Shown here piece after piece: positions 27,073 to 39,064 of a stretch of DNA of 64,000 nt. The DNA comes from Candidatus Enterousia sp. GTDB taxonomy: Bacteria; Pseudomonadota; Alphaproteobacteria; Rs-D84. Positions within the stretch are counted from its first letter, which is position 1. Each line of letters begins with the position of its first letter. A program made the translations under genes and the position numbers. The stretch is from the NCBI GenBank assembly GCA_045593685.1, contig JAZNXD010000018.1, forward strand, positions 41,247-105,246. The letters are read 5' to 3'. The notes under the pieces are model-generated. The model made no database searches, was not told the origin of the DNA, and worked only from the letters and a program-made list of their open reading frames with translations.

Positions 27073-30000
27073 TTATGCTTTTTTTACAGAAATACTTAAA
27101 GTATACCCTTCTATATCCTTGCTGTATTCACCATCACCGCAAACCATTTCAACAACCAACGCATCGCGCATAATACGTTTTTTATGCTGTTCAATCGCAA
27201 TCGCCAATGCAGGGTCTGCATTGTATGTCAACACAATGCGGTCGGATACATCCAATCCCGCCGCCTTGCGTGTATCCTGGATAAAGCGCAATGCATCATT
27301 TGCCAACCCTTCGGCCACCAGTTCTGAATTAACATCTGTATCCAGAACGACCACCGCGGTGTTATCTGGTAATGCCGCACCTGTAACACCATCGCGCATG
27401 TTCAGGCGCATTTCAAATTCGTCTGAATTTAATGTATGACCCGCGGCAATTAATTTATCGCCTGCAATTTCATAGTCCCCGCGTTTAACAGCCGGGATAA
27501 TTTCTTTTAATGCACCGCCCAAACGTGCACCAATCTTTGGTGTAATCAGGTATACAAAACTGTCCGCAACATCACCAAACGAATCTTCGAACTTAACCGA
27601 TTTAACATTTAATTCGTCTTTGATAATATCGGCGTATTCCGGCATGTTTGCACCCGCCACCGTTAACGAATTTAATGGCAAACGATTGCGCAGTTTATAT
27701 TGTTCACGCAACTGTTTTCCAACCGATACGATTGATTGCACGCGTCGCATATCTTCTACGATTTTTGTATCCACCGTACCCGCCGTTGGGAACGCTGTCA
27801 AATGTACAGATTCATCCCCGGTCAGGTTTTTATAGATATGTTCCGCGACAAACGGTGCGAACGGCGCAATCACGCGACAGAATTTTACCAATACTGTATA
27901 CAGCGTATCAAATGCCGCCTGTTCTTCATCCCAGAAACGTGCGCGCCCGCGTCTGATGTACCAGTTGTTCAGGATATCCAGGAATCGCACAAATTCTTTG
28001 ATTGCCACGTCCGGTTTATATTCATCCAGCGCATTTTTCACCACACATACCAAAACATTTAATTCGGCCAGGATATATTTATCCAACGGTGTTGTGCCAT
28101 CTGTTATTTCATGCGCGGTCACATTGCCTGCATTGGCATACAATGTAAAGAAGTGATATGCGTTCCACAGCGGTGTCTGAATTGTTTTTGTTGAATCAAC
28201 AAATACCTTGCCTTCTTTATCGACGGGCACCGGTTCCGCCTTCATAAAATTCGACCCCAGTATATATAAACGCACGGCATCTGCGCCATATTGTTCAATT
28301 TGTTCGCTTGGGTCAACAAAGTTCCGCAATGATTTCGAGAATTTTTTCTTATTCTCGTCCACCACCATACCGTTTGCAGACACGGCCCTGAACGCAGGCT
28401 TATCAAACAACGCCGTCGCCAATACCATCAGCGCATAGAACCAACCACGTGTTTGGTCCTGGCCCTCTATAATATAGTCCGCCGGAAATGTCGCCGCAAA
28501 GCGTTCTGCGTTTTCAAATGGATAGTGCAGTGACGCCCATGGCATAGAACCACTTTCCACCCAGCAATCCAAAACATCTGTTATACGCGTCCAACCATCC
28601 TTGGTCAGTTTATCCAGTGTTGGGCGATGCAAATCATCAATTTTCACACCAAAGAATTCTTCTAATTCTGCGATTGACCCGAATACTTTGTATTCACCGT
28701 CCTTTTCCCAAATTGGCAAAGGCATCCCCCAGAAACGATTTCGTGAAATCGACCACGGGCGTGCATTTTCAATCCACGAACGGAAACGTTCCCCGGCACT
28801 TGTCCAATTAACCAATGCATTATTTGCCAATAATTTGTCTTTAATTTTTGGCACATCGATATACCAAGAATCCGTTGCGCGATAAATTAATTTTTCTTTG
28901 GATCTGTCACCAAACGGATAACTGTGTTTGTATTGTTCTTTTTTGACCAATCGTCCATTTGTTTTCAGCCAATCCAAAATAGCGGGCGTCGCCGCAAAGA
29001 TATTTTGTCCCGCAAAATCCACAACCGTTTCATCAAAATTGCCATAGTCATCCACATTTAACAGTACCGGGAATTTTGCATCAATATTTTTTGCCGCCCA
29101 AAAGTCGTCCGCCCCATACGCCGGCGCAATGTGTACAATACCCGTACCGTCAGAATCCGAAACATAGTCCGCCGGTATTACCTGGAATAATAATTCGGAC
29201 CCGCCCGCATAATATGGGAACAGCGGTGTATAGTGCATCCCGACCAAATCTGCCCCCTTAACAGAGCCAATCTGGGTTGCGTTTGCGAATTGTTTTTCGT
29301 ATGCCGCCAGGCGCGAAGCAGCAACAATATAAATCGCGCCGTCTGCATCCTGCATACGCACATATTCCATGTTGGGATTTACCGCCAACGCAGAATTTGC
29401 CGGCAACGTCCATGGCGTAGTTGTCCATGCAATCGCGCGGTCGCCATTTTCCAATTCAAACCAAACCGTTACCGCATCGTCAACAATTTCGCGATAGTCA
29501 CTGGATGCCTCGGAATTTGACACAACCGTACCATTAACCCAGTCATATGGATTCACGCTGTAATCTTTGTACAACAGACCCTTTTCATACAGCGACTTTA
29601 ATGTCCACAACATGGATTCCATATAGTTTTTATTCATGGTCTTGTAACCATATTCATCACCAATATCGACCCAGCGTCCCATGCGCGTAATAAAACGATT
29701 CCACTCGTTTGCATATGTCATAACATCGGTTCTGCACATATCACAGAACGCCGAAATGCCGTCACTTGCAACAATGTCTTTGGCTGATTTTCCCTGTTTT
29801 TTTTCAACGGAATTTTCCGCCGGCAACCCGTGGCAATCCCACCCCAGTTCGCGACGTACAAACCGACCGTTCATTGTCTGGAAACGACCAATCATATCTT
29901 TTACCACCGACACACCCAAATGTCCCCAGTGTGGTGTTCCATTGGCAAAGGGTGGACCGTCATAGAAAGAAAACGGATGTCCCTGTTTTGTTTGCTCCAA

Positions 30001-30096
30001 CGACTTATGAAATGTATTATTTTCGCGCCAATATTCCAACACCTGCTGTTCCAATTCAGGAAAGTTTGCACGTGGGTCTGTTTTTGGGTATGCCAT
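27073..30096 (-). CDS. ileS: Isoleucine--tRNA ligase, type 2 (eukaryote-like)
   Basis: FYDGPPFANGTPHWGHL HIGH-region typical of type-2 IleS. KMSKS region. 1007 aa. Confidence 0.9.
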   Translation of the reverse strand: MAYPKTDPRANFPELEQQVLEYWRENNTFHKSLEQTKQGHPFSFYDGPPFANGTPHWGHLGVSVVKDMIGRFQTMNGRFVRRELGWDCHGLPAENSVEKKQGKSAKDIVASDGISAFCDMCRTDVMTYANEWNRFITRMGRWVDIGDEYGYKTMNKNYMESMLWTLKSLYEKGLLYKDYSVNPYDWVNGTVVSNSEASSDYREIVDDAVTVWFELENGDRAIAWTTTPWTLPANSALAVNPNMEYVRMQDADGAIYIVAASRLAAYEKQFANATQIGSVKGADLVGMHYTPLFPYYAGGSELLFQVIPADYVSDSDGTGIVHIAPAYGADDFWAAKNIDAKFPVLLNVDDYGNFDETVVDFAGQNIFAATPAILDWLKTNGRLVKKEQYKHSYPFGDRSKEKLIYRATDSWYIDVPKIKDKLLANNALVNWTSAGERFRSWIENARPWSISRNRFWGMPLPIWEKDGEYKVFGSIAELEEFFGVKIDDLHRPTLDKLTKDGWTRITDVLDCWVESGSMPWASLHYPFENAERFAATFPADYIIEGQDQTRGWFYALMVLATALFDKPAFRAVSANGMVVDENKKKFSKSLRNFVDPSEQIEQYGADAVRLYILGSNFMKAEPVPVDKEGKVFVDSTKTIQTPLWNAYHFFTLYANAGNVTAHEITDGTTPLDKYILAELNVLVCVVKNALDEYKPDVAIKEFVRFLDILNNWYIRRGRARFWDEEQAAFDTLYTVLVKFCRVIAPFAPFVAEHIYKNLTGDESVHLTAFPTAGTVDTKIVEDMRRVQSIVSVGKQLREQYKLRNRLPLNSLTVAGANMPEYADIIKDELNVKSVKFEDSFGDVADSFVYLITPKIGARLGGALKEIIPAVKRGDYEIAGDKLIAAGHTLNSDEFEMRLNMRDGVTGAALPDNTAVVVLDTDVNSELVAEGLANDALRFIQDTRKAAGLDVSDRIVLTYNADPALAIAIEQHKKRIMRDALVVEMVCGDGEYSKDIEGYTLSISVKKA

Positions 30097-30274: not shown

Positions 30275-30303
30275 TTGCAATTTGTATTTTATGTAAATAT
30301 AAT
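30275..30303 (+). promoter_or_regulatory. Sigma70-type promoter TTGCAA-N17-TATAAT for leader/HTH cassette A
   Basis: -35 TTGCAA at 30275-30280 and -10 TATAAT at 30298-30303, 17 nt apart. The same hexamers occur at the paralogous locus B. Confidence 0.6.
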
Positions 30304-30339
30304 GCATATGCATCGGAACAATCCCGGTGTGGGGTATAA

Positions 30340-30481
30340 GAACCTCTCCAAGATGTCTGGCAAGACATAAAACTACCTCCAACCCTGGTTGGAGGGCCGG
30401 GATATATATAAATAAACGGCACTATTCTTGGATAGTTCTTAACCTCCAACCGCTTTTGAAATTCAAATGCGGTTTCTTTAT
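30340..30481 (+). promoter_or_regulatory. Structured 5' leader A (attenuator/riboswitch-like)
   Basis: Hairpin at 30353-30368, then a 7-nt linker. Stem CCTCCAACC (30376-30384) pairs with GGTTGGAGG (30387-30395). A 46-nt spacer contains a small hairpin. ACCTCCAACC (30442-30451) overlaps the terminator stem AACCGC...GCGGTT followed by a T tract (30448-30481). The architecture is identical at locus B. Confidence 0.6.
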
Positions 30482-30502
30482 ATGGAAACGCGGGGTAAAT
30501 CA

Positions 30503-30688
30503 ATGAATATCGGCCATGCAATAGAACGTATTCGTATTTCTGAAAATATACCATTAAATCAAATGTGTGACATACTGGGGCTGACATCGGAAATGGATTA
30601 TCATAAAATACGTACGGGCATGGTTGCCCCAACAATATATCAACAAATAATGGTTGTTATGAACACGCGTAAACCATTGGAAATATAA
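30503..30688 (+). CDS. Small XRE-family HTH transcriptional regulator (61 aa), paralog A
   Basis: GGGG ribosome-binding site 9 nt upstream. HTH LNQMCDILGLTSEMDYHKIRTG. About 35% identical to the 38879..39064 product, with the same length. Confidence 0.6.
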   Translation: MNIGHAIERIRISENIPLNQMCDILGLTSEMDYHKIRTGMVAPTIYQQIMVVMNTRKPLEI

Positions 30689-30970: not shown

Positions 30971-31456
30971 TTAATGTTCCTTGCCATTGTAATGATTGTT
31001 CAAATGTCGGGTTAAAACCTGTTTCATTTGTGCAATGATTTTTTGCCGCAAATTTTTGGGTGTATCATATGGCAAAAAGTCAGATGCGTTTTCCGACATT
31101 TGTTTCGCAAAACGTTTCTGAGAATCTTGTATTGCATCTTTTGCTGGTATTTTATATGGGTCAATATAAGGTTTTCCCATGGCTTTATTGTTTGCTGCGA
31201 TATATATTTCATAAGTGGTGTTTTTATGACAATCTTCGTCCCACCAATCCGCGTCGTCCAAAAGAACAAAGCGTTTTATATCGGGTTTGTATTCATATAT
31301 AGATGTGTAAGTATCGCCATCATGGCGTACGCTATACTTTCCAAAAGTATATGACCAGCCATCAAAAATTCCAGTAAATCTTTCTTTTTCTTCTTTTTTT
31401 ACGACATCGTGTGTTGCCAATTCATAATAAATACTTCTTTTTGTGCTTTCCTTCAT
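30971..31456 (-). CDS. Hypothetical protein (161 aa)
   Basis: Open reading frame directly downstream of mnmG on the same strand. No recognisable motifs. Confidence 0.45.
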   Translation of the reverse strand: MKESTKRSIYYELATHDVVKKEEKERFTGIFDGWSYTFGKYSVRHDGDTYTSIYEYKPDIKRFVLLDDADWWDEDCHKNTTYEIYIAANNKAMGKPYIDPYKIPAKDAIQDSQKRFAKQMSENASDFLPYDTPKNLRQKIIAQMKQVLTRHLNNHYNGKEH

Positions 31457-37983: not shown

Positions 37984-38493
37984 ATGAAAACATTAAATCA
38001 AATTGATAAAAATACCATTATTTATATTGTAAACGAAATAACACGCCATCATGGCATAAAAAATGTACCACCGGTAAAGTTGGGCCGGTTAACATATTTA
38101 CTGTGGTTGGAATATGCATCGTTACAGCCCGGATACGAATTTCCCAAAAATTCACCGATGGCAAACATGCGTTTTATAAATTATGAACGCGGCCCGGCCG
38201 AGGTTCTAAGTTCCGACAATTATTACGAAATTCAATCGGAAATTATATCCGGTCGTGTTCCGAACTTTTCGCAAACAATGTTCGCTGCAAACGAAAATGT
38301 ACGCCTGAATCACGCATTTGAAACGGTGCGTAATTGTTATTCGAACCATCGTACCGAAGATTTATGTTATTTTATTCAGCATACATTACCGACCTGTTTG
38401 TTCAAGCCTGTGATTGCGCCATTGCAAATAAATAATCAAGAATTTTTGCAAGAGGTTAAATCATTTATCAAGCATCGTCACAAATTGAAATAA
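37984..38493 (+). CDS. Hypothetical protein resembling SocA/Panacea domain (DUF4065, phage-associated GepA-like)
   Basis: VKLGRLTYLLWLEYA ... NYERGPAEVL matches the Panacea pattern KLxKLLY...F.a..GPV. It sits next to tRNA-Val. Confidence 0.4.
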   Translation: MKTLNQIDKNTIIYIVNEITRHHGIKNVPPVKLGRLTYLLWLEYASLQPGYEFPKNSPMANMRFINYERGPAEVLSSDNYYEIQSEIISGRVPNFSQTMFAANENVRLNHAFETVRNCYSNHRTEDLCYFIQHTLPTCLFKPVIAPLQINNQEFLQEVKSFIKHRHKLK

Positions 38494-38528: not shown

Positions 38529-38605
38529 TGGTGGGTGGTATTGGACTCGAACCAACGACCTTTACGATGTCAACGTAACGCTCTAACCAACTGAGCTAAC
38601 CACCC
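38529..38605 (-). tRNA. tRNA-Val (anticodon GAC)
   Basis: Cloverleaf. Acceptor GGGTGGT/ACCACCC. Anticodon loop UUGACAU. T-loop TTCGAGT. CCA is encoded. Confidence 0.9.
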
Positions 38606-38648
38606 AAAACTACTAAAACTGCGCCCATTATAACAAAGAAAAATATAA

Positions 38649-38678
38649 TTGCAAATGATATTTGTTATGGGATATAAT
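38649..38678 (+). promoter_or_regulatory. Sigma70-type promoter TTGCAA-N18-TATAAT for leader/HTH cassette B
   Basis: -35 at 38649-38654 and -10 at 38673-38678, the same hexamers as locus A. Confidence 0.55.
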
Positions 38679-38687
38679 ACCGATTGT

Positions 38688-38860
38688 AATAGGGTACCTA
38701 TTATGCGAGGCTGGAAATCTCGCGACACACTCGCCTGCGCAGGCGTTAATTGCTCCAACCCGTGGTTGGAGGTCGGTTAATATATTGAATACCCGAGCCA
38801 CGAAGTGTCGTGATTTCTACCTCCAACCACCCTATTCCAAGGTGGTTTTTCTTTTAATCT
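38688..38860 (+). promoter_or_regulatory. Structured 5' leader B (paralog of leader A)
   Basis: Palindrome AATAGGgtaCCTATT at 38688-38702. Hairpins GCGAG/CTCGC and CGCCTGCGCAGGCG at 38732-38745, then a 7-nt linker. Stem CTCCAACC (38753-38760) pairs with GGTTGGAGG (38764-38772). A 46-nt spacer contains hairpin CACGAagtgTCGTG. ACCTCCAACC (38819-38828) overlaps terminator AACCACC...GGTGGTT, followed by a long T tract. Confidence 0.6.
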
Positions 38861-38878
38861 TTTTTTTGGGGGGTGGAA

Positions 38879-39064
38879 ATGACTTTGGGGTATGAAATTG
38901 AATATATTCGTACATTGCGAAATTTATCAATAATTGACGTTTGTAATGCAATGGGGGTTTCGGAATCAGAATACCGTAATATCATCTATAATCATACACG
39001 CCCCACAACATATCAATTAATCATGTTTATATCTGTGGCGCATCATCACATTAATTCTGTATAA
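38879..39064 (+). CDS. Small XRE-family HTH transcriptional regulator (61 aa), paralog B
   Basis: GGGGGGTGG ribosome-binding site. HTH LSIIDVCNAMGVSESEYRNI. Confidence 0.6.
   Translation: MTLGYEIEYIRTLRNLSIIDVCNAMGVSESEYRNIIYNHTRPTTYQLIMFISVAHHHINSV

Follow-up and report, generated by a model that had tools for sequence, protein, structure and literature searches.

An undescribed leader RNA family that looks built as a two-state transcription switch in tiny-genome gut Alphaproteobacteria

Introduction

Two loci in a 64-kb window (the whole stretch of DNA analysed here) from an uncultured Candidatus Enterousia / Rs-D84 alphaproteobacterium each place about 175 nucleotides between a promoter and a small XRE-type gene, which raises the question of what this interval encodes and how it bears on the gene behind it. 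An initial annotation had proposed a duplicated structured leader that is tied to two paralogous XRE genes and works as a three-element terminator switch. Candidatus Enterousia and its Rs-D84 relatives inhabit animal and human guts and have not been cultured; their genomes are below 1 Mb, respiration and the TCA cycle are missing, and many of their membrane proteins are unassigned (PMC12306168). Here, we report that the two loci are copies of a previously undescribed family of ~175-nt structured leader RNAs, which is widespread in tiny-genome gut Alphaproteobacteria. Positioned between promoter and gene, this new attenuator family looks, from its sequences, built to act as a two-state transcription switch.

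Results

Each locus carries a promoter, a structured leader and a terminator

Both loci share one layout, in which a sigma-70 promoter is followed by a ~175-nt structured RNA, an intrinsic terminator, an RBS and a 61-aa XRE gene. The features of locus 1 are as follows.

30275..30303, + strand: promoter (TTGCAA 30275-30280, N17, TATAAT 30298-30303; promoter scan 10/12 matches)
30304..30479, + strand: leader RNA, ~176 nt from presumed transcription start to U-tract end
30310..30330, + strand: P1, the 5' hairpin (30310-30316 : 30324-30330), in minimum-energy and centroid folds
30331..30352, + strand: P2 5' strand (base GGGGU 30331-30335, outer AUAAGAA 30337-30343, inner UCCAAG 30347-30352)
30353..30368, + strand: P3, AUGUCUggcaAGACAU, the "peripheral hairpin" of the initial annotation
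30376..30384, + strand: arm 1, CCUCCAACC, the P4 5' strand and proposed anti-antiterminator
30387..30395, + strand: arm 2, GGUUGGAGG, partner of arm 1 (P4, terminating fold) or of arm 3 (read-through fold)
30396..30420, + strand: P5 (GCCG 30396-30399 : CGGC 30417-30420), with conserved AU-rich loop GGAUAUAUAUAAAUAAA
30422..30446, + strand: P2 3' strand (inner CUUGGA 30427-30432, outer GUUCUUA 30435-30441, base ACCUC 30442-30446)
30422-30425 : 30432-30435, + strand: P6, alternative local hairpin (CUAU : AUAG)
30442..30451, + strand: arm 3, ACCUCCAACC; closes P2 with its 5' part and begins the terminator stem with its 3' part (AACC)
30448..30479, + strand: intrinsic terminator (stem 30448-30460 : 30462-30474 with one mismatch, then UUUCUUU)
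30492..30688, + strand: RBS (GGGG 30492-30495) and HTH1 gene (61-aa XRE-type ORF 30503-30688)

In the alternative fold of locus 1, GGGG pairs locally with CCUC as P2a. Locus 2 is arranged in the same order.

38649..38678, + strand: promoter (TTGCAA 38649-38654, N18, TATAAT 38673-38678)
38679..38851, + strand: leader RNA, ~173 nt (170 bits with covariance model R1)
38686..38704, + strand: P1 (GUAAUAGG 38686-38693 : CCUAUUAU 38697-38704)
38705..38728, + strand: P2 5' strand (base GAGG 38707-38710, outer UGGAAAUC 38712-38719, inner GCGACAC 38722-38728)
38705-38709 : 38719-38723, + strand: P2a, alternative local hairpin (GCGAG : CUCGC)
38732..38745, + strand: P3, CGCCUGCGCAGGCG
38753..38760, + strand: arm 1, CUCCAACC
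38764..38772, + strand: arm 2, GGUUGGAGG
38774..38795, + strand: P5 (CGG 38774-38776 : CCG 38793-38795), with conserved loop UUAAUAUAUUGAAUAC
38799..38823, + strand: P2 3' strand (inner GUGUCGU 38805-38811, outer GAUUUCUA 38812-38819, base CCUC 38820-38823)
38799-38803 : 38808-38812, + strand: P6, alternative hairpin (CACGA : UCGUG)
38819..38828, + strand: arm 3, ACCUCCAACC
38825..38851, + strand: intrinsic terminator (AACCACC 38825-38831, 9-nt loop, GGUGGUU 38841-38847, U tract)
38869..39064, + strand: RBS (GGGGGGUGG) and HTH2 gene (61-aa XRE-type ORF 38879-39064)

The TTGCAA-N17/18-TATAAT promoters of the initial annotation were confirmed by sequence and by a promoter scan, and these sigma-70-like promoters stop exactly at the start of the structured RNA. 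The palindromic -35 hexamer of locus 2 is common to the divergent tRNA-Val promoter on the - strand. As annotated, a terminator hairpin with a T tract ends both leaders and a 61-aa HTH gene follows, its RBS and start lying ~25-30 nt past the terminator with no promoter-like site between terminator and gene at either window locus. A simple terminator scan with a loop limit of 8 nt flagged neither leader terminator, probably because the 9-nt loop of locus 2 exceeds that limit and the stem of locus 1 has an internal mismatch. Each locus thus shows what is expected of an attenuator in outline, namely a promoter-proximal leader with a G+C-rich hairpin and a U tract directly upstream of an ORF.

The two window copies have only short sequence blocks in common. 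The word CTCCAACC and its complement occur six times in the 64 kb, all within the two loci, compared with a chance expectation of 0.75 (mean of shuffles), and none of 100 shuffles reached six. Both leaders are more stable than shuffled sequences, with minimum free energies of -66.6 kcal/mol at locus 1 (z = -7.1) and -61.4 kcal/mol at locus 2 (z = -4.1).

Several of the measurements first made at these loci describe the window but not the wider family presented below. The 46-nt spacer from GGTTGGAGG to ACCTCCAACC is exact in both loci (30396-30441 and 38773-38818) but is not fixed, with longer spacers in the unbiased XRE-linked relatives (e.g., ~50 nt core to core in unit A of L001), and the 7-nt linker found at both loci ranges from 4 to 10 nt in the family. 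The conserved arm hairpin is present at both loci, but the first arm of locus 2 reads gCTCCAACC rather than CCTCCAACC, hence its 8 bp. The hairpin ATGTCTggcaAGACAT in one locus does correspond in position to CGCCTGCGCAGGCG in the other. The small hairpins CTAT..ATAG, CACGA..TCGTG and GCGAG..CTCGC form in the alternative (read-through) fold only and are absent from the most stable fold. There, their strands instead make up a long-range helix, P2, which had been missed, and a four-way junction takes the place of the string of small hairpins originally described.

The claim that the leader belongs to no known RNA family held throughout. A scan of the whole window against Rfam 15 at the gathering threshold returned three tRNAs and nothing else, scans of both loci with E up to 10 returned only noise on terminators downstream of ORFs, and 20 further unit-bearing loci gave tRNA and rRNA only. 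We found no paper on the motif in the literature and none that joins Rs-D84 with riboswitches.

The leaders belong to a family with a conserved terminating fold

A search for further copies yielded 99 additional units from genomes and gut metagenomes, and the family has at least 100 members. A metagenome search with the XRE protein gave no confirmed relatives; a DNA pattern search worked instead. The window holds two units only, since a covariance-model search of it with the speed filters off returned no third. With covariance model R1, the locus 1 leader scores 62.9 bits (E = 2e-16 to 9e-17), and the match starts directly after the -10 box. Because the search pattern that recovered most of the 99 units specified the 8-nt arm cores, arm-core conservation in those units is uninformative, and our argument about the arms rests on the unbiased XRE-linked units, by-catch units and positions outside the pattern.

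The terminating (T) fold is a four-way junction composed of P1, the long-range P2, P3, P4 (arm1:arm2) and P5, to which the terminator is added. When the 99 units were aligned by a covariance model fitted to this structure, 95.1% of cells were paired and 47 of 54 pairs changed on both sides, whereas sliding the partner by 1-3 columns in the same units gave 35-47% pairing. A MAFFT alignment, which involves no structure fitting, showed pairing in 95.9% of cells and changes on both sides at 13 pairs. None of 500 shuffles matched that alignment in percentage paired, double-changed cell count or covariation score, and one of 500 matched its number of pairs with a double change. Across the family, all eight pairs of P1 change on both sides and all five pairs of P3 covary, P2 covaries in both the MAFFT and the covariance-model alignments, and the terminator stem keeps its seven pairs (7/7, locus 2 numbering). 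P4, through which arm 1 would compete with arm 3 for the antiterminator strand, is paired in 99.7% of cells and has G.U-compatible variants. In the unbiased set, P1, P2, P3 and P5 covary freely and P4 and the terminator are nearly invariant, which is the pattern that a three-way pairing constraint predicts.

These results support the initial proposal of a functional structured RNA and place it on the + strand, given the heavy covariation and the G.U pairs, which on the opposite strand would read as A.C mismatches. Covariance-model scores were 170-214 bits for the forward strand versus 20-27 bits for the reverse. The promoter-then-unit layout of the window recurs in 60 of 78 metagenome units, and the promoter sequence varies from unit to unit. 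Copies within one genome are highly diverged; they have the arms and the P5 loop in common and keep their pairing by compensatory changes.

Across the 99 units, unpaired positions conserved at >= 85% are confined to the apical loop of P5 (G-AAUAU..G-AAU-A) and to two As in the P3-P4 linker. The loop, GAAUAUAUUGAAUAA, contains two GAAUA motifs. The junction strands vary across the family and lack the conserved core nucleotides typical of small-molecule aptamers. Pairing of the P5 loop with the P3-P4 linker, the P1 and P3 loops, the P6 region or the 5' end was no higher than in shuffles, and a search of the window for sites complementary to the loop found no excess. A P5 kissing dimer through the palindromic core AAUAUAUU was rejected, as that core is not conserved.

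Two classes of arms coexist in one genome, class I with CUCCAACC and class II with UCCCGACC/GGUCGGGA. The SD and anti-SD likeness (GGAGG/CCTCC) stressed in the initial annotation is consequently not required: class II and other variants lack GGAGG/CCUCC, which weakens the idea that the arms work through RBS/anti-RBS likeness. Leader-peptide attenuation was also set aside; units inspected by eye have no small ORF in common, and the RBS-like arm 2 is not followed by a consistent start codon.

Signs of selection on an alternative, mutually exclusive fold

In the alternative (A) fold, arm 2 pairs with arm 3 and buries the 5' half of the terminator. RNAalifold, which the initial annotation had recommended for a joint fold, itself picked this arm2:arm3 helix. 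Four independent variants alter all three arms together, with UCCCGAC / GUCGGGA / UCCCGAC in L022 and L014b (and a related form in L018), CCUGUCCCA / UGGUGGCAGG / CCUGCCA in L029, and CUCCUGGC / GUCAGGAG / CUCCUGAC in L102b. Variants of arm 1 only (CUCCGACC, CUCCAAUC and CUCCAACU) are all G.U-compatible transitions.

Outside the search pattern, the base that follows the arm 2 core pairs with the base that precedes the arm 3 core, a ninth arm2:arm3 pair kept in all 95 of 95 units (G-C in 82, U-A in 8, U.G in 3 and A-U in 2). The same arm 2 base can pair with the flank of arm 1 in only 38% of units, and pairing is down to 5% one position further out. Furthermore, P2a and P6, which exist in the A fold only, beat shuffled controls with mean z of -2.35 and -2.05, respectively (Wilcoxon p ~1e-15, n = 90). 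The A fold, mutually exclusive with the T fold, is therefore also under selection, and it provides the alternative helix, inclusive of the terminator 5' strand, that an attenuator needs.

The energies favor termination. In the full-length RNA, the T fold is more stable than the A fold by 2-22 kcal/mol; in a transcript that extends up to the terminator loop, it is favored by a median of 7.9 kcal/mol; and the A fold is thermodynamically disfavored in 94 of 99 units. A difference of ~8 kcal/mol implies that read-through would involve an activating factor. The three-element switch proposed initially thus stands in its pairing logic, as GGTTGGAGG is complementary to both flanking copies of CCTCCAACC, the second of which overlaps the terminator, the arms covary and the ninth pair is kept, but the energies favor the terminating fold by ~8 kcal/mol.

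The leader is found mostly upstream of secreted- or surface-protein genes

Contrary to the initial view that the leader is tied to two paralogous XRE genes, its members, at least 100 in number, lie mostly upstream of genes for signal-peptide or surface proteins. The kinds of downstream gene include surface-repeat proteins, an outer-membrane beta-barrel, Cys-rich secreted proteins, XRE regulators, an EcoRI-type methylase and a UvrD-like helicase. The leader is not confined to XRE genes, and the XRE genes of the window are two members of a larger proposed regulon. From the end of the unit to the start codon, the median distance is 26 nt (interquartile range 20-32), and an RBS usually lies in between.

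The two window proteins, both of 61 aa, are 37% identical, and orthologues of HTH1 stand behind the same leader type in L001, L016 and L103. Both were classed as XRE/Cro-type regulators, whose hallmark is a lambda-repressor-like HTH domain of four to five helices. Pfam HTH_3 matches HTH2 with E = 2.7e-4, just under the curated cut-off, and a Pfam search of HTH1 found no match. An AlphaFold model of HTH2 has four helices and a pLDDT of 94.4, and Foldseek placed it nearest to the solved folds of DdrO, SinR, HipB, C.BclI (a restriction-modification controller) and P22 c2, with TM scores of 0.7-0.8. PHROGs and PADLOC scans of the XRE proteins gave weak generic HTH matches only.

The neighbors of the window units are the housekeeping genes ileS, mnmG, fabG, fabD, metG and accBC, and the position of the unit between tRNA-Val and accC is fixed in synteny across species. 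Both window copies adjoin tRNA genes. Integrases occur close to tRNA-Val in L003 and L005, with the islands on the far side of tRNA-Val from the unit. The extended promoter palindrome ATATAATT-GCA-AATTATAT was considered as an XRE operator and rejected; it is found in some species only, and we dropped it because the divergent tRNA-Val promoter, with its common TTGCAA, better accounts for the conserved upstream block.

Discussion

We propose, with a probability of roughly 0.6, that each leader is a two-state transcription attenuator that terminates by default and reads through in the A fold, and that the leaders together govern a regulon of mostly secreted and surface proteins. Computation shows that both folds are present as conserved pairing potential, with the arms changing in concert at three places, and we infer that the RNA does switch between them. 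By default, the RNA would adopt the T fold, in which P1 and the P2-closed four-way junction with P3, P4 and P5 leave the terminator hairpin free, such that transcription would halt and a stable ~175-nt RNA would be set free. In the A fold, arm 2 would release arm 1 and pair with arm 3 over 9 bp, which would close a three-way junction that also includes P5 and the local P6, while the 5' strand of P2 would refold as the local hairpin P2a. The terminator would be blocked because arm 3 holds the first 4 nt of its stem, and RNA polymerase would continue into the gene that starts ~26 nt downstream. An activating factor would hold arm 1 or stabilize the three-way junction; we consider a protein or RNA that recognizes the conserved P5 loop most likely, and a small-molecule ligand less so. 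The model predicts that changing arm 1 from CUCCAACC to GAGGUUGG would raise read-through.

The same leader type would then control a secreted- and surface-protein regulon in the reduced-genome Rs-D84 / Enterousia bacteria. More tentatively, and with somewhat less than even confidence, we suggest that it forms a regulon-wide RNA switch that is the main gene-control device of gut Rs-D84 with genomes below 1 Mb, such that one effector (an RNA-binding antiterminator, a trans-acting RNA or a new ligand of the P5 loop) gates the secretome and a few regulators, with class I and class II as separately addressable channels.

Alternatively, the units could be stand-alone genes for trans-acting small RNAs that always terminate, with the ~175-nt RNA as the product and the position before genes as secondary, which we regard as unlikely. 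Each unit does have its own promoter and strong terminator, the stable fold is the terminating one, tandem arrays of two to three units with their own promoters suggest selection for RNA dosage, and the exposed conserved motif of the P5 loop is a possible binding or seed site. However, nearly all units have a same-strand RBS and ORF within ~20-32 nt, which leaves no space for another promoter, and a search of the window yielded no complementary target for the P5 loop. Moreover, the terminator-overlapping arm2:arm3 helix with its ninth covarying pair and the selected hairpins found only in the A fold would be without a role if the units always terminated. The two ideas are compatible, in that a terminated leader of an attenuator could additionally act in trans.

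A constitutive 5' UTR module, which would be a fixed partial terminator and/or a structure for mRNA stabilization or processing, without signal-dependent switching, appears slightly harder still to accept. The lack of ligand-pocket-like conservation, the preference for the terminating fold in 94 of 99 units and the mixed functions of the downstream genes would all suit such a module, but a fixed damper needs no second fold, and triple covariation, an extra pair and two dedicated hairpins keep one here.

Far less probable is that the inverted repeat CCTCCAACC-n-GGTTGGAGG and its third half-site are DNA operators of the downstream XRE proteins: inverted repeats are known targets of XRE proteins, the window proteins have an ordinary Cro/XRE DNA-binding fold and the repeat is a near-perfect palindrome on DNA, but this reading is largely refuted by a half-site spacer that ranges from 2 to 9 nt, arm 1 variants that are G.U-compatible on the + strand only, RNA-type compensatory changes over the whole unit, the low reverse-strand scores and the non-XRE genes behind most units. 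Equally implausible is that the units are copies of a palindromic, MITE-like mobile or intergenic repeat, or a phage-immunity remnant, and have no RNA function of their own. This could be suspected from the many copies per lineage with some tandem duplication, the tRNA genes beside the window copies and the integrases by tRNA-Val in L003 and L005. However, diverged copies within a genome still pair through compensatory changes, promoters differ from unit to unit, the arm pattern matched no viral contig, the integrase islands lie beyond tRNA-Val while the unit stays between tRNA-Val and accC, and family members differ widely, unlike the near-identical dispersed copies with terminal inverted repeats that define MITEs.

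Known leaders offer several precedents for the attenuator that we favor. The pyr operon leaders of Bacillus are PyrR-controlled attenuators with three elements (anti-antiterminator, antiterminator and terminator). As in those leaders, arm 1 sequesters arm 2, which otherwise partners the 5' half of the terminator (arm 3), and the whole sits between promoter and gene. Unlike in the pyr leaders, the outer two elements are identical in sequence, a fourth strand pair (long-range P2 versus local P2a and P6) would switch simultaneously, and the default fold already terminates, which calls for an activator rather than a PyrR-like terminating factor; the pyr leaders have no sequence or Rfam relation to the family described here.

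The pbuE/ydhL adenine riboswitch is an ON-type riboswitch with a three-way-junction aptamer. The predicted read-through fold resembles it, with arm2:arm3 as the closing helix of a ~64-nt three-way junction that includes P5 and P6, a junction 3' strand that is also the terminator 5' strand, and an OFF fold that invades the junction. In contrast to pbuE/ydhL, the junction strands of our family are variable, being P2 strands that covary with their P2 partners, loop-loop pairing was not found when tested against shuffles, and the purine-riboswitch model gave no match. The downstream genes suggest no metabolite, and regulated genes tied to a single metabolite, as expected for a small-molecule riboswitch, were not found among them.

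The immunity RNAs of satellite phage P4 (CI RNA, seqA-seqB-seqC) and of phages P1/P7 (c4) form the Rfam C4 family. They share with our units a central sequence complementary to an upstream and a downstream copy; its pairing decides early termination in the phage RNAs and would do so in our units. Prompted by this A-B-A' complementarity, we considered an RNA of the P4 CI or P1 c4 type and rejected it, as the C4 model did not match either locus even at E = 10, viral contigs searched with the arm pattern gave no match and the units have a core-genome context rather than a phage or satellite immunity location. The P4 and P1 systems also differ in that the central RNA is excised, acts in trans and lies in a phage immunity region, whereas the upstream copy in our units is directly adjacent and forms a hairpin, and the units precede cellular genes.

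T-box leaders terminate by default, and a macromolecular effector stabilizes their antiterminator. The leaders described here are likewise long and structured, are predicted to terminate by default and would need an effector in the proposed model, but they have no match to the Rfam T-box model, and neither aminoacyl-tRNA synthetase genes nor amino-acid genes stand behind them. The placement of one leader type before many surface, adhesin-like and regulator genes recalls the regulons of the c-di-GMP-I/II riboswitches, although the leaders resemble them in neither structure nor sequence and gave no Rfam match; a second-messenger ligand would be pure conjecture.

Of the secreted- and surface-protein genes examined, a large proportion have this one leader type upstream, which suggests that the interface of Rs-D84 bacteria with hosts or partner cells is largely under one RNA device. 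With at least 100 diverse members and compensatory changes at 47 of 54 pairs, the leaders make a well-populated candidate RNA family, and its signs of selection on both mutually exclusive folds are unusual. The family is a clean system for studies of co-transcriptional switching and for the search for a new effector. In addition, the covariance model gives annotators predicted transcription starts and terminators in genomes without transcript data.

In L001, L019 and L021, tandem units occur that have their own promoter and terminator and no ORF directly behind them, an arrangement compatible with an additional stand-alone role for the RNA.

Two loci share a leader with a promoter, an intrinsic terminator and a downstream HTH gene

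Both loci within the window consist of a promoter identified by sequence and promoter scan, a leader, and a short ORF that starts 24-28 nt past the leader:

30275-30303, + strand: locus 1 promoter, TTGCAA-N17-TATAAT
30503-30688, + strand: HTH1, 61-aa ORF
38649-38678, + strand: locus 2 promoter, TTGCAA-N18-TATAAT
38879-39064, + strand: HTH2, 61-aa ORF

At each locus, the promoter, a 46-nt spacer from GGTTGGAGG to ACCTCCAACC, a hairpin and T tract that terminate the leader, and the 61-aa ORF were found as the initial annotation had described them. Its sequence for arm 1 of locus 2 was wrong; arm 1 reads gCTCCAACC, and the hairpin of arm 1 with arm 2 is therefore 8 bp. Six occurrences of the octamer CTCCAACC or its complement were counted across the 64 kb, three at each locus, against a mean of 0.75 in shuffled sequence (0 of 100 shuffles reached six). 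As also stated initially, most of the underlying sequence differs between the loci: the leaders show near-total divergence outside short shared blocks, and the HTH1 and HTH2 proteins are 37% identical. Folding of both leaders was much more stable than that of shuffled sequence (z = -7.1 for locus 1 and -4.1 for locus 2).

Two local resemblances were also observed. On the - strand at 30376-30400, the palindrome of helix P4 together with the A-rich P3-P4 linker resembles an intrinsic terminator (hairpin plus TAGTTTT) and was flagged by the scan. The start of the HTH2 coding sequence (38895-38909; GAAATTGAATATATTCG, which encodes the conserved EIEYIR) holds the palindrome GAATATATTC and is close to the P5 loop motif GAAUAUAUUGAAUA, a likeness that may be a coincidence of AT-rich sequence.

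The leader belongs to a family with a conserved terminating fold

The same leader was present in front of almost every XRE homologue of the XRE-linked set. Single-sequence folding of 30 distinct units returned one recurring architecture, which comprises a 5' hairpin (P1), a long-range helix in three segments (P2) and the terminator. P2 closes a four-way junction that encloses P3, P4 (arm 1 with arm 2) and P5; the CCUC of arm 3 ends the 3' strand of P2, and its AACC begins the terminator stem. Applied to a plain MAFFT alignment of 19 units of the locus 2 type, this structure places 95.9% of cells in pairs and 13 pairs change on both sides, which supports the initial claim of a functional RNA. 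None of 500 shuffles reached the observed percentage paired, double-changed cells or covariation score, and one of 500 had as many pairs with changes on both sides. Within P2, single positions show compensatory changes (UUAGAACU/AGUUCUAA, UUAGUACU/AGUACUAA, UUAGCACU/AGUGCUAA and UUAGAAGU/ACUUCUAA).

A covariance model built from this alignment (R1) gave the window copies scores of 170 and 63 bits and also recovered every other unit type. Scanning metagenomes for the three-arm pattern yielded at least 120 stretches from rumen, gut, human-gut and termite samples, and R1 found full-length units in 75 of 80 fetched loci. Five loci (L077, L078, L085, L100 and L105) matched the DNA pattern with no R1 hit, and may have done so by chance or be highly divergent relatives. 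Across 99 units aligned to R1, a set whose large metagenome part was pre-selected for the arm cores, 95.1% of cells pair and 47 of 54 pairs show changes on both sides; sliding the partner by 1-3 columns lowered pairing to 35-47%, and none of 500 shuffles came near. Because the 99-unit alignment was fitted to R1, the MAFFT result serves as the independent check. The Rfam search that had been suggested initially, conducted with Rfam 15 on the window copies and 20 other unit-bearing loci, matched no family, and we found no description of the leader in the literature.

Tandem leaders were observed in three related genomes, with two (L001:2588-3013), two (L019:3532-3978) and three units (L021:3283-3975). 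Every copy comes with a promoter and a terminator of its own, an XRE gene follows the last copy only, and the copies have diverged with pairing kept.

A second, mutually exclusive fold is under selection

Forcing arm 2 to pair with arm 3 produced a three-way junction of that helix, P5 and a local hairpin (P6), and the 5' strand of P2 refolded as a local hairpin (P2a). The small hairpins noted initially (GCGAG/CTCGC, CACGA/TCGTG and CTAT/ATAG) are real as P2a and P6, that is, within this second fold. RNAalifold, the joint fold proposed in the initial annotation, picked the arm2:arm3 helix over P4 when run on 28 units.

All three arms have changed in concert in independent lineages, including L029 (CCUGUCCCA / UGGUGGCAGG / CCUGCCA), the by-catch unit L102b, which lies outside the pattern selection (CUCCUGGC / GUCAGGAG / CUCCUGAC), and the class II units L022, the related L018, and L014b (UCCCGAC / GUCGGGA / UCCCGAC). 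Variants confined to arm 1 are solely G.U-compatible transitions (CUCCGACC, CUCCAAUC and CUCCAACU). A ninth arm2:arm3 pair joins the base that follows the core of arm 2 to the one that precedes the core of arm 3, both outside the search pattern, and is present in 95 of 95 units (G-C 82, U-A 8, U.G 3, A-U 2). Pairing of this arm 2 base with the arm 1 flank is seen in 38% of units, and the next position outward pairs in 5%. The triple covariation and the ninth pair agree with the initial proposal that arm 2 can pair with either flanking copy. The stability of P2a and P6 exceeds that of shuffled sequence (mean z -2.35 and -2.05; Wilcoxon p ~1e-15, n=90), with p values that overstate independence because the units are related. 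On four lines of evidence, we say that the arm2:arm3 fold is under selection. In the MAFFT set, P4 and the terminator start are near-invariant while other helices drift by compensation, which is a prediction of the three-way pairing constraint, so a sequence-specific reader of the arms need not be invoked.

Class II forms a subclass with arms UCCCGAYC/GGUCGGGA/UCCCGACC:

L014:366-541, - strand: class II unit
L022:3790-3979: class II unit
L018:3764-3979 (= L007, L008): class II unit

Its P5 loop motif (..CNAAGG) differs from that of class I, and, judged from sequence, the difference in arms and loop would fit separate effectors. L014b and a class I unit are 3.4 kb apart on one contig (SUUQ01000001), which suggests that two orthogonal switch versions may run in one cell.

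Termination is the predicted default

These computational results show that two conserved, mutually exclusive pairing schemes exist, one with the terminator free and one in which the first four nucleotides of the terminator are sequestered. Computed energies favour the terminating fold, by 2-22 kcal/mol in the full RNA and by 7.9 kcal/mol (median) in the transcript to the terminator loop; in the latter, the read-through fold came out ahead in only 5 of 99 units. Based on these energies, termination would be the default and read-through would need an activator. Strong conservation of unpaired sequence is confined to the P5 loop (G-AAUAU...G-AAU-A, with two GAAUA motifs), and the P3-P4 linker has two conserved A residues as well. 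Because the loop is conserved and shows no excess complementarity to the rest of the RNA or to the 64-kb window, our guess is that the activator would be a trans-acting macromolecule rather than a small ligand.

A pure trans-acting sRNA is suggested by the tandem units of L001, L019 and L021 that have no ORF directly behind them, yet such a role leaves unexplained both the antiterminator helix and the close spacing between unit and ORF. If the leader were a constitutive damper or stabiliser, selection on the second fold would be left unexplained. Readings of the element as a DNA operator or as a mobile repeat are contradicted by its strand-specific G.U pairs, the variation in loop length, the compensatory changes and the diversity of its promoters.

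The leader precedes diverse genes

For the metagenome units, the median distance from the unit to the start of the next ORF is 26 nt (interquartile range 20-32), and a ribosome-binding site usually precedes the ORF. A simple hydrophobicity rule, which is a crude heuristic, assigned a signal-peptide-like N terminus to 40 of 64 scorable downstream genes; a few of the other 24 appear to be start-codon errors. Pfam matches among downstream genes include Listeria-Bacteroides repeat domains (six proteins), an outer-membrane beta-barrel, Cys-rich ephrin-receptor-like repeats, an F5/8 type C domain, an EcoRI-type methylase, a UvrD-like helicase and several XRE HTH proteins. A TTGnnn-N16-18-TAnnnT promoter abuts the start of the RNA model in 60 of 78 units, and these promoters vary in sequence, which indicates that the unit is not a copied DNA cassette. 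The initial placement of the leader ahead of two XRE genes therefore holds in the window and fails as a general rule, as most units precede genes of other kinds; given the diversity of downstream genes in the wider family, the XRE association in the window is a special case. The AlphaFold model of HTH2 shows an ordinary Cro/XRE fold (pLDDT 94), with DdrO, SinR, HipB and controller proteins as the closest solved structures.

Genomic neighbourhood and relatives

The window loci lie among housekeeping genes (ileS, mnmG, fabG, fabD, metG and accC) and are adjoined by tRNA-Thr and tRNA-Val. Near relatives of HTH1 and HTH2 are on a Candidatus Enterousia sp. MAG contig, and remoter ones are in 'Alphaproteobacteria bacterium' MAGs from goat, sheep, deer, buffalo and chicken guts. 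Enterousia is a member of the uncultured order Rs-D84, whose genomes are smaller than ~1 Mb (PMC12306168). HTH2 synteny is fixed in ~20 species (metG, variable region, tRNA-Val, leader and HTH2, accC-accB), and integrase islands, where present in some genomes, lie on the far side of tRNA-Val from the leader and HTH2. Phage-type integrase genes were observed beside tRNA-Val at L003:398-1825, where the 3' half of the tRNA is replaced, and at L005:227-1849, which also has a resolvase; they point to an integration hot spot on the tRNA side away from the leader.

The palindromic -35 TTGCAA at 38649-38654 seems common to two back-to-back promoters (38627-38678; likewise in L012-L031). The + strand promoter drives the locus 2 leader, and the - strand promoter (TTGCAA-N16-TATAAT with an extended TG) faces tRNA-Val (38529-38605) and has as its -10 region the conserved block ATTATAACAAAGAA that precedes the leader promoter. 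In some species, small GIY-YIG domain ORFs (104-120 aa), possibly homing-endonuclease-like selfish genes, flank the HTH2 gene on either side (L006:1880-2242, L007:2842-3156 and L008:717-1031). The ORFs adjoining the loci at 30971-31456 (- strand, 161 aa) and 37984-38493 (+ strand, 169 aa) had no Pfam match, and the latter is kept beside metG in the relatives L002 and L004. The isoleucyl-tRNA synthetase (27073-30096, - strand) has a C-terminal DUF5915 domain.
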